From Haliotis cracherodii (taxonomy: Eukaryota), in NCBI RefSeq assembly GCF_022045235.1, contig NW_027266297.1, positions 34,844,001 to 34,908,000 on the forward strand: a stretch of DNA of 64,000 bases, given 5' to 3'. The notes below the pieces were generated by a model. It saw only the letters and a list, made by a program, of their open reading frames with translations, did not search any database and was not told the origin of the DNA. Positions 35,037 through 63,728 of the stretch are shown in pieces. A program made the position numbers and the translations under genes. How positions within the stretch are numbered: the first letter of the stretch is position 1; each line of letters starts with the position of its first letter.

Positions 35037-63728
<28,692 letters not shown>

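Follow-up and report, generated by a model that had tools for sequence, protein, structure and literature searches.

The LAR gene of the window

The DNA analysed here (the window) is a 64,000-nt stretch of the Haliotis cracherodii contig NW_027266297.1. It holds most of the abalone gene for a LAR-family (type IIa) receptor tyrosine phosphatase. Pfam fn3 and Y_phosphatase were matched on 8/8 exons given, and tblastn with H. rufescens XP_046367033.1 yielded 23 exon matches in the window, nearly all of them 90–100% identical. Ig exons and the FN1 exon of the gene lie upstream of the window on contig C34. Because this FN1 exon, a cassette, was counted, the numbering of FN2 and FN3 used below is correct. 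LAR-family receptors were defined by three Ig domains, a run of FN3 repeats, a transmembrane segment and tandem PTP domains. By this definition the gene is a LAR-family (type IIa) receptor PTP whose closest solved relatives are PTPRF, PTPRD and PTPRS; these three occupy the top 8 of 14 sequence matches to solved structures.

Splicing was followed in contigs from four (X1, X3, X5 and X10) of 20 listed runs, which carry no tissue labels. The runs are read as spliced RNA because their contigs join exons across GT-AG introns. Four exons of the gene are needed below:

35035..35137, + strand, exon for the first part of FN2 of the LAR-family receptor phosphatase (tblastn with XP_046367033.1; GT..AG joint to the next exon in 4/4 runs)
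35785..35983, + strand, 199-nt exon for the second part of FN2, with VLTTQG at its phase-1 end; it borders the microexon intron on the upstream side (Pfam fn3, tblastn, run joints)
40061..40345, + strand, 285-nt exon for FN3, starting VPYQP in phase 1, downstream flank (Pfam fn3, tblastn, run joints)
42611..42919, + strand, 309-nt FN4 cassette exon, included or skipped (run joints; 103-aa deletion in gastropod models)

The exons flanking the microexon intron are 95–100% identical to those of H. rufescens. FN4 is included through a joint from 40345 to 42611 in 4/4 runs and skipped through a joint from 40345 to 44361 in 3/4 runs. The 103-aa deletion is found in models of H. asinina, Pomacea, Babylonia and Littorina, and FN4 is skipped in Bradybaena models also.

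Other features of the gene were noted in passing. The FN1 exon (96 aa, C34:34834377-34834667) is likewise a cassette in Haliotis models. Short optional exons on C34 comprise 42 nt before Ig1 (near 34771371), 30 nt between Ig1 and Ig2 (near 34794986; GGNPWVV.Y., common to Pomacea, Babylonia, Littorina and Patella) and 24 nt between Ig2 and Ig3 (near 34812402), the last at the vertebrate meB position. Introns of the gene hold, at 35595-35756 and 45142-45950, a highly abundant short interspersed repeat with at least 43 other genome matches and a tandem repeat array. An unbroken 970-codon frame at C5:39148473-39150617 shares 31% identity with the part of LAR that comprises the membrane-proximal region and the phosphatase; it appears to be an intron-poor PTP gene or a retrocopy.

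A 15-nt microexon between FN2 and FN3

The FN2-FN3 intron is 4077 nt long, interrupts the frame in phase 1, and contains two microexons. The initial annotation had proposed the first of these, a 15-nt exon in phase 1-1 with a TGCAG acceptor, a GTAAGT donor, a branch-like ttgac about 20 nt upstream and TGCATG about 100 nt downstream. All of these elements are in place:

37147..37161, + strand, 15-nt cassette microexon, phase 1-1, encoding APIFD (9/17 Haliotis RefSeq models from 3 species; related inserts in Biomphalaria and Octopus)
37142..37146, + strand, acceptor TGCAG, with 13/20 pyrimidines upstream and an AG-free zone of 36 nt (sequence)
37162..37167, + strand, donor GTAAGT (sequence)
37124..37128, + strand, TTGAC, a putative branch point with its A 20 nt before the APIFD exon (sequence)
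37265..37270, + strand, TGCATG, an Rbfox-type motif 104 nt downstream of the APIFD exon (sequence)
37031..37049, + strand, AG with a strong pyrimidine tract, 97 nt before the APIFD exon, a possible alternative acceptor (sequence)

The exons at 35785-35983 and 40061-40345 do meet in phase 1. Since FN2 ends and FN3 starts in this phase, inclusion of APIFD reads TTQG-APIFD-VPYQP, and the hinge that had been predicted, TQG-APIFD-VPYQP, is exactly that of H. rufescens isoform X1 (XP_046366864.1). The RefSeq peptide bears out the identity of the microexon; the initial annotation was incomplete in that it missed a 12-nt microexon at 38185-38196 in the same intron. With canonical AG/GT borders, a preserved frame, no stop and a length within 3–27 nt, the APIFD exon belongs to the cassette microexons. 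When the intron was scanned for frame-preserving exons of 3–30 nt with a fair donor, two were found, APIFD (37147-37161) and AGLP (38185-38196).

The strength of the splice motifs was considered as proof of the exon and rejected, since a stop-free YAG-[3n]-GTAAGT candidate of equal quality turned up in 122/1000 dinucleotide shuffles of the intron (4077 nt). A TGCATG within 140 nt of the exon is expected by chance with P about 0.08. Because splice motifs are not enough, it is the occurrence of the same peptide at the same junction in 9/17 Haliotis models that places the APIFD exon beyond chance. An in-frame upstream extension of APIFD to match longer inserts in Octopus and Biomphalaria was also rejected, because the frame meets a stop 8 codons upstream and the sequences are not alike.

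Use of the acceptor at 37049 would yield a 112-nt exon carrying an in-frame stop. The site looks unused and could be a decoy or the start of a poison exon. Runs X3, X5 and X10 carry a 1-nt insertion behind 37064.

Inclusion and skipping of APIFD

TTQG-APIFD was found in 9/17 Haliotis RefSeq models from 3 species (the listing covering 15 of the 28 members of the main cluster), including XP_046366864.1, XP_046367033.1, XP_046566693.1 and XP_067679316.1. Of the models listed, APIFD is carried by 5/8 from H. rufescens, 1/1 from H. rubra, 3/6 from H. asinina and 0/2 from H. cracherodii. The peptide is unchanged in H. rubra and H. asinina, and three separate abalone annotations agree on it letter for letter. 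That the sole H. rubra model includes it does not suggest a rare form. All four hinge forms are found in H. rufescens: neither insert (isoform X4), APIFD (X1), AGLP (X2, X10) and both (X5, X7, X9, X12). The RefSeq Haliotis models are automated annotation. Tiny combinatorial exons in gene models are normally built from transcript alignments.

A joint from FN2 directly to FN3, skipping both microexons, was present in contigs of runs X3, X5 and X10. The cassette status of the APIFD exon combines inclusion in annotation (9/17 models) with skipping in these RNA contigs. No APIFD joint is among the 15 of 181 joint rows or the 12 of 180 between-letter rows listed, and contigs drop rare variants. The inclusion joints listed for runs X1 and X10 carry only the 12-nt AGLP exon. 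Depth sums, too rough to serve as evidence, left about a fifth of the depth of the FN3 exon unassigned in X3 and X5. Taken together, the APIFD exon is very likely real, and we are highly confident that it is spliced in H. cracherodii.

RNA contigs also span the whole microexon intron (35954-40088, in X10 as a single contig of 4133 nt) and the introns on either side of FN4. Such coverage suggests that introns at the regulated exons are spliced slowly or retained, although DNA in the runs could also produce it.

The second microexon has the following features:

38185..38196, + strand, 12-nt cassette microexon, phase 1-1, encoding AGLP (joined to both flanking exons in contigs of X1 and X10; present in models of H. 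rufescens and H. cracherodii)
38141..38146, + strand, ACTAAT, a match to the branch-point consensus before the AGLP exon (sequence)

In five gastropod lineages it keeps its length of 4 aa while its residues vary: AGLP, VGPT (H. rubra and H. asinina), AGPP (Gigantopelta), AGFQ (Pomacea) and AGYQ (Babylonia). VGPT is read as the orthologue of AGLP because no separate VGPT-coding exon occurs in this FN2-FN3 intron. Within abalones, therefore, the 4-aa exon has changed at 3/4 residues while APIFD is unchanged. Pomacea models differ by one residue at this exon (AGFQ and GFQ), as from tandem acceptors 3 nt apart.

Age and distribution of the hinge insert

Related inserts were found at the same junction in two other molluscs. 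Biomphalaria (XP_055886068.1) has an optional 20-aa insert ending PIFD, present in 10/13 listed members that cover the hinge and skipped in 3. Octopus (XP_036361663.1) has VPVNKPVIFD (10 aa) and a second insert of 2 aa; among the 15 of 27 members listed, the two occur in each of the four possible combinations. Both resemble the abalone exon in junction, in being optional and in ending VIFD or PIFD, and the Octopus insert is likewise paired with a second tiny insert. Compared as protein models rather than genome exon structures, they are longer than APIFD (10 and 20 aa), and the second insert is 2 aa in Octopus as against 4 aa in gastropods.

This likeness exceeds chance. Among 10 foreign inserts tallied, PIFD is expected anywhere with a probability of 3e-4 and two occurrences of IFD with about 1e-5; IFD does not occur in the 18,176 residues of 9 LARs that have no insert. 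Set aside before counting were P0072 (a hemicentin) and P0073 (a sidekick), which are not LAR, and fragments without the hinge; P0246 (an ambiguous 3-residue insert) and P0186 (FN3 skipped) stayed out of the insert tally.

Unrelated inserts occupy the same hinge in a chiton (GMSRLYP, DDSAKA), Mytilus (ANID) and the nemertean Lineus (13 aa). Lineus has a further insert at the Ig2-Ig3 (meB) site, which begins DKPVIF, like the NKPVIFD of the Octopus FN2-FN3 insert (P0069, P0097); as the two lie at different sites, the likeness is probably chance. A PIFD-type insert is absent from the listed models of Gigantopelta, Pomacea, Babylonia, Littorina, Patella, Lottia, Physella, Bradybaena, the chiton and bivalves. 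An FN2-FN3 insert was found in 0/87 arthropod, hemichordate, amphioxus and vertebrate LAR representatives among the best 120 of 4789 matches, counting cluster representatives rather than every isoform.

These comparisons suggest that the APIFD exon probably goes back to a hinge exon already present in the common ancestor of gastropods and cephalopods; [PV]IFD at the 3' end of that exon would have been kept while its length came to differ (5, 10 and 20 aa). Because the listed models of so many molluscs lack a PIFD-type insert, this ancestry needs many losses or missed annotation.

Rbfox-type motifs and a block of low substitution

The Rbfox-type motif TGCATG occurs 8 times in the microexon intron, compared with 2.55 expected from shuffles, and 0/300 shuffles reach 8. 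GCATG occurs 15 times compared with 5.83, again reached by 0/300. The eight sites are at 36162, 36473, 36567, 37265, 37975, 38903, 39210 and 39323. The FN4 cassette exon has an excess of TGCATG on either side as well (5 and 3 sites, compared with 1.11 and 0.35; 2/300 shuffles each). The motif is not enriched in 1-35034 (12 compared with 17.4) or in 46569-64000 (9 compared with 7.1). Only 1/23 other exons has TGCATG within 150 nt, a count that used approximate ends for some exons; the intron shuffles are the cleaner motif test.

According to the available part of PMC10551640, downstream Rbfox binding promotes exon inclusion. The APIFD exon shows the Rbfox-type pattern, with (U)GCAUG downstream and enriched over background. 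Because 3/8 TGCATG sites lie upstream of APIFD, the repressing side, an Rbfox-type effect could on balance be of either sign. Judging from motif enrichment, there is an even chance that the exon is activated in an Rbfox-type manner. Neural enrichment of APIFD inclusion, argued by analogy, may be put at similar odds.

One block of the intron has few substitutions:

37076..38263, + strand, low-substitution part of the intron that includes both microexons, as seen against a related abalone (run X3 contig 36888-39136)

None of the 14 listed of the 15 differences in this contig falls within 37076-38263. The probability of such a block is 3e-4 with bounds chosen afterwards and 0.027 with fixed 100-nt margins, in a DNA-level comparison covering relatives about 1% apart.

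The exon was also compared with microexons that depend on the eMIC domain (Srrm3/4, Srrm234). Like these bilaterian microexons it is shorter than 28 nt, preserves the frame and has a weak acceptor tract, here with a 36-nt AG-free zone. In flies, the part of bioRxiv 10.1101/2021.02.24.432780 available describes UGC before the acceptor, a CUAAY branch point and a weak donor. Against this fly pattern, the APIFD exon has no TGC at -25 to -4 of its acceptor (the only TGC is inside TGCAG itself), no CUAAY was found at the exon, where the branch-like site is TTGAC, and its donor is strong. The eMIC domain PF15230 had no match in the genome, but it matched 0/14 controls as well.

Structure of the hinge

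The fold of FN2-APIFD-FN3 was predicted from a 73-row alignment. Both FN domains are confident (mean pLDDT 88.9), residues 97-110 are coil, and the pTM is 0.58; G-A-P at the start of the insert falls under pLDDT 50. A fold search with this model returned 4PBX, 6TPW and 4YH7 as its top 3. Over the same domain pair the model fits 4PBX at an rmsd of 2.4 Å, 4YH7 at 4.5 Å and 6TPW at 12.1 Å, so the FN2-FN3 joint takes different angles in vertebrate crystals; the likeness to 4PBX may reflect training data. The available portions of PMC4239663 and PMC10815196 describe the FN2-FN3 linker of type IIa ectodomains as a flexion point. Since both domains are confident, the linker is coil and crystals and papers alike show a flexing joint, the insert lies in a known flexion point and leaves the domains unbroken.

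The predicted fold shows no defined contact for the insert. It is likely that the insert changes reach, angle or binding at the FN2-FN3 joint. Because IFD is kept while length is free, it points to a contact motif, and the 4-aa exon, with its length kept and its residues varying, points to a spacer. Whether APIFD is such a conserved hydrophobic contact motif and the second exon a spacer we judge to be evenly balanced; IFD could also be kept for DNA-level splicing reasons.

A proposed hinge switch and its alternatives

The reading we favour, and consider reasonably probable, is that an optional 15-nt exon adds APIFD to the FN2-FN3 linker as a tissue-restricted switch that tunes ectodomain bending or binding. 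Together the APIFD and AGLP exons would give four predicted linker forms, with 0, 4, 5 or 9 extra residues. APIFD would be switched on in restricted tissues, probably neural ones and likely with the help of Rbfox, and the insert would likely tune bending or binding of the ectodomain at the FN2-FN3 joint.

The main competitor, distinctly less likely than this reading, accepts a real and regulated exon in which the switch is not neural: muscle, epithelium or a developmental stage would decide inclusion, with or without Rbfox. It draws on the presence of APIFD in 9/17 Haliotis models and in the single H. rubra model, and on the missing TGC and CUAAY signals of the eMIC type. Rbfox also acts in muscle, which favours it too. 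Against it, LAR-family microexons have mainly been studied as neural, as far as the available part of PMC10883964 covers them, and the skip and AGLP-only forms listed in the four runs fit tissue restriction, though they name no tissue. The insert might instead be nearly neutral, a tolerated product of a hotspot where a phase-1 intron between FN repeats accepts any short in-frame exon. The unrelated inserts in chiton, Mytilus and Lineus, the patchy presence of PIFD-type inserts and the disordered start of the insert in the predicted model are what this would produce, and the same genes often gain exons repeatedly according to the accessible part of bioRxiv 10.64898/2026.09.05.749416. However, APIFD is unchanged in three abalones while the neighbouring 4-aa exon has changed at 3/4 residues, [PV]IFD recurs in Biomphalaria and Octopus, and a low-substitution block and motif enrichment surround the exons, so that neutrality is unlikely.

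Two further possibilities concern the exon itself. The GTAAGT donor could mainly serve the stop-holding 112-nt exon from the 37049 acceptor, for a poison or secreted form, with the 15-nt exon as a minor by-product. The pyrimidine tract before 37049 is longer than that before 37146 and RNA contigs cover the whole intron, but such an exon appears in none of the joint rows listed and in none of the 17 Haliotis models, and the 1-nt insertion behind 37064 in three related runs removes the stop and alters the length; we regard this as very improbable. Slighter still is the chance that the exon, while real in other abalones, is silent in this species, or that it is an artefact repeated between annotations. 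For X1, whose sequence is nearest to that of the window, the AGLP joint is the only one listed, and 0/2 listed H. cracherodii models have APIFD. Yet the exon and both splice sites are intact between flanking exons 95–100% identical to those of H. rufescens, the same five residues come from three separate annotations, and contigs would drop a rare variant.

Relation to known LAR microexons

The vertebrate microexons of PTPRF, PTPRD and PTPRS belong to the same receptor family and likewise insert 3–9 residues in frame, according to the portions of PMC8711739, PMC4239663 and PMC10883964 available. In the available part of PMC8711739, meA lies in Ig2, meB between Ig2 and Ig3, meC in FN5 and meD near the membrane. 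The LAR-RPTP microexon that was added in 2024 follows the last FN repeat, and eight uncharacterized Ptprd exons are reported with their positions in a supplementary figure (PMC10883964, in part). Measured against these partly available accounts, the abalone pair, between FN2 and FN3, is at none of the meA-meD positions and shows no sequence likeness to them, and the insert falls outside a class defined by Ig2, the Ig2-Ig3 linker, FN5 or the juxtamembrane region. In its working the pair is closest, on the same partial sources, to the tandem meA3/meA6 microexons of PTPRD meA, which also give four states, and to meB, which also lengthens an inter-domain hinge.

The Haliotis RefSeq LAR isoforms carry the identical APIFD at the identical junction as automated models, for which no description, tissue data or function was found. 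The literature searched, from which most subscription papers were missing, yielded no account of a LAR microexon in molluscs or of an insert between FN2 and FN3. The preprint bioRxiv 10.64898/2026.09.05.749416 includes Octopus; 'ptpr' does not occur in its main text as available, and its supplements may list the exon. We conclude that this is a LAR microexon site of a known kind, undescribed in the literature searched and already present in the automated annotation of three abalones. The surprise is moderate, given that LAR microexons are well known, the exon is already annotated and its function is only proposed.

A broader proposal, which we put forward tentatively and hold to be rather doubtful, is a mollusc LAR splice code. 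A two-microexon, four-state FN2-FN3 switch would have been kept since the gastropod-cephalopod ancestor at a site unused by vertebrates and arthropods, with [PV]IFD as a ligand- or conformation-selecting motif included in neurons, convergent with meA3/meA6 of PTPRD. In vertebrates, LAR-RPTP microexons select synaptic partners, and every one studied is at another position in the protein. If a conserved pair does lie at the FN2-FN3 flexion point, molluscs including octopus would have evolved a separate code on this receptor, a matter that also touches the conservation of neural microexons between mollusc classes. The four linker forms would offer a small, testable handle on whether the length of the hinge or a short motif governs the shape and binding of LAR.
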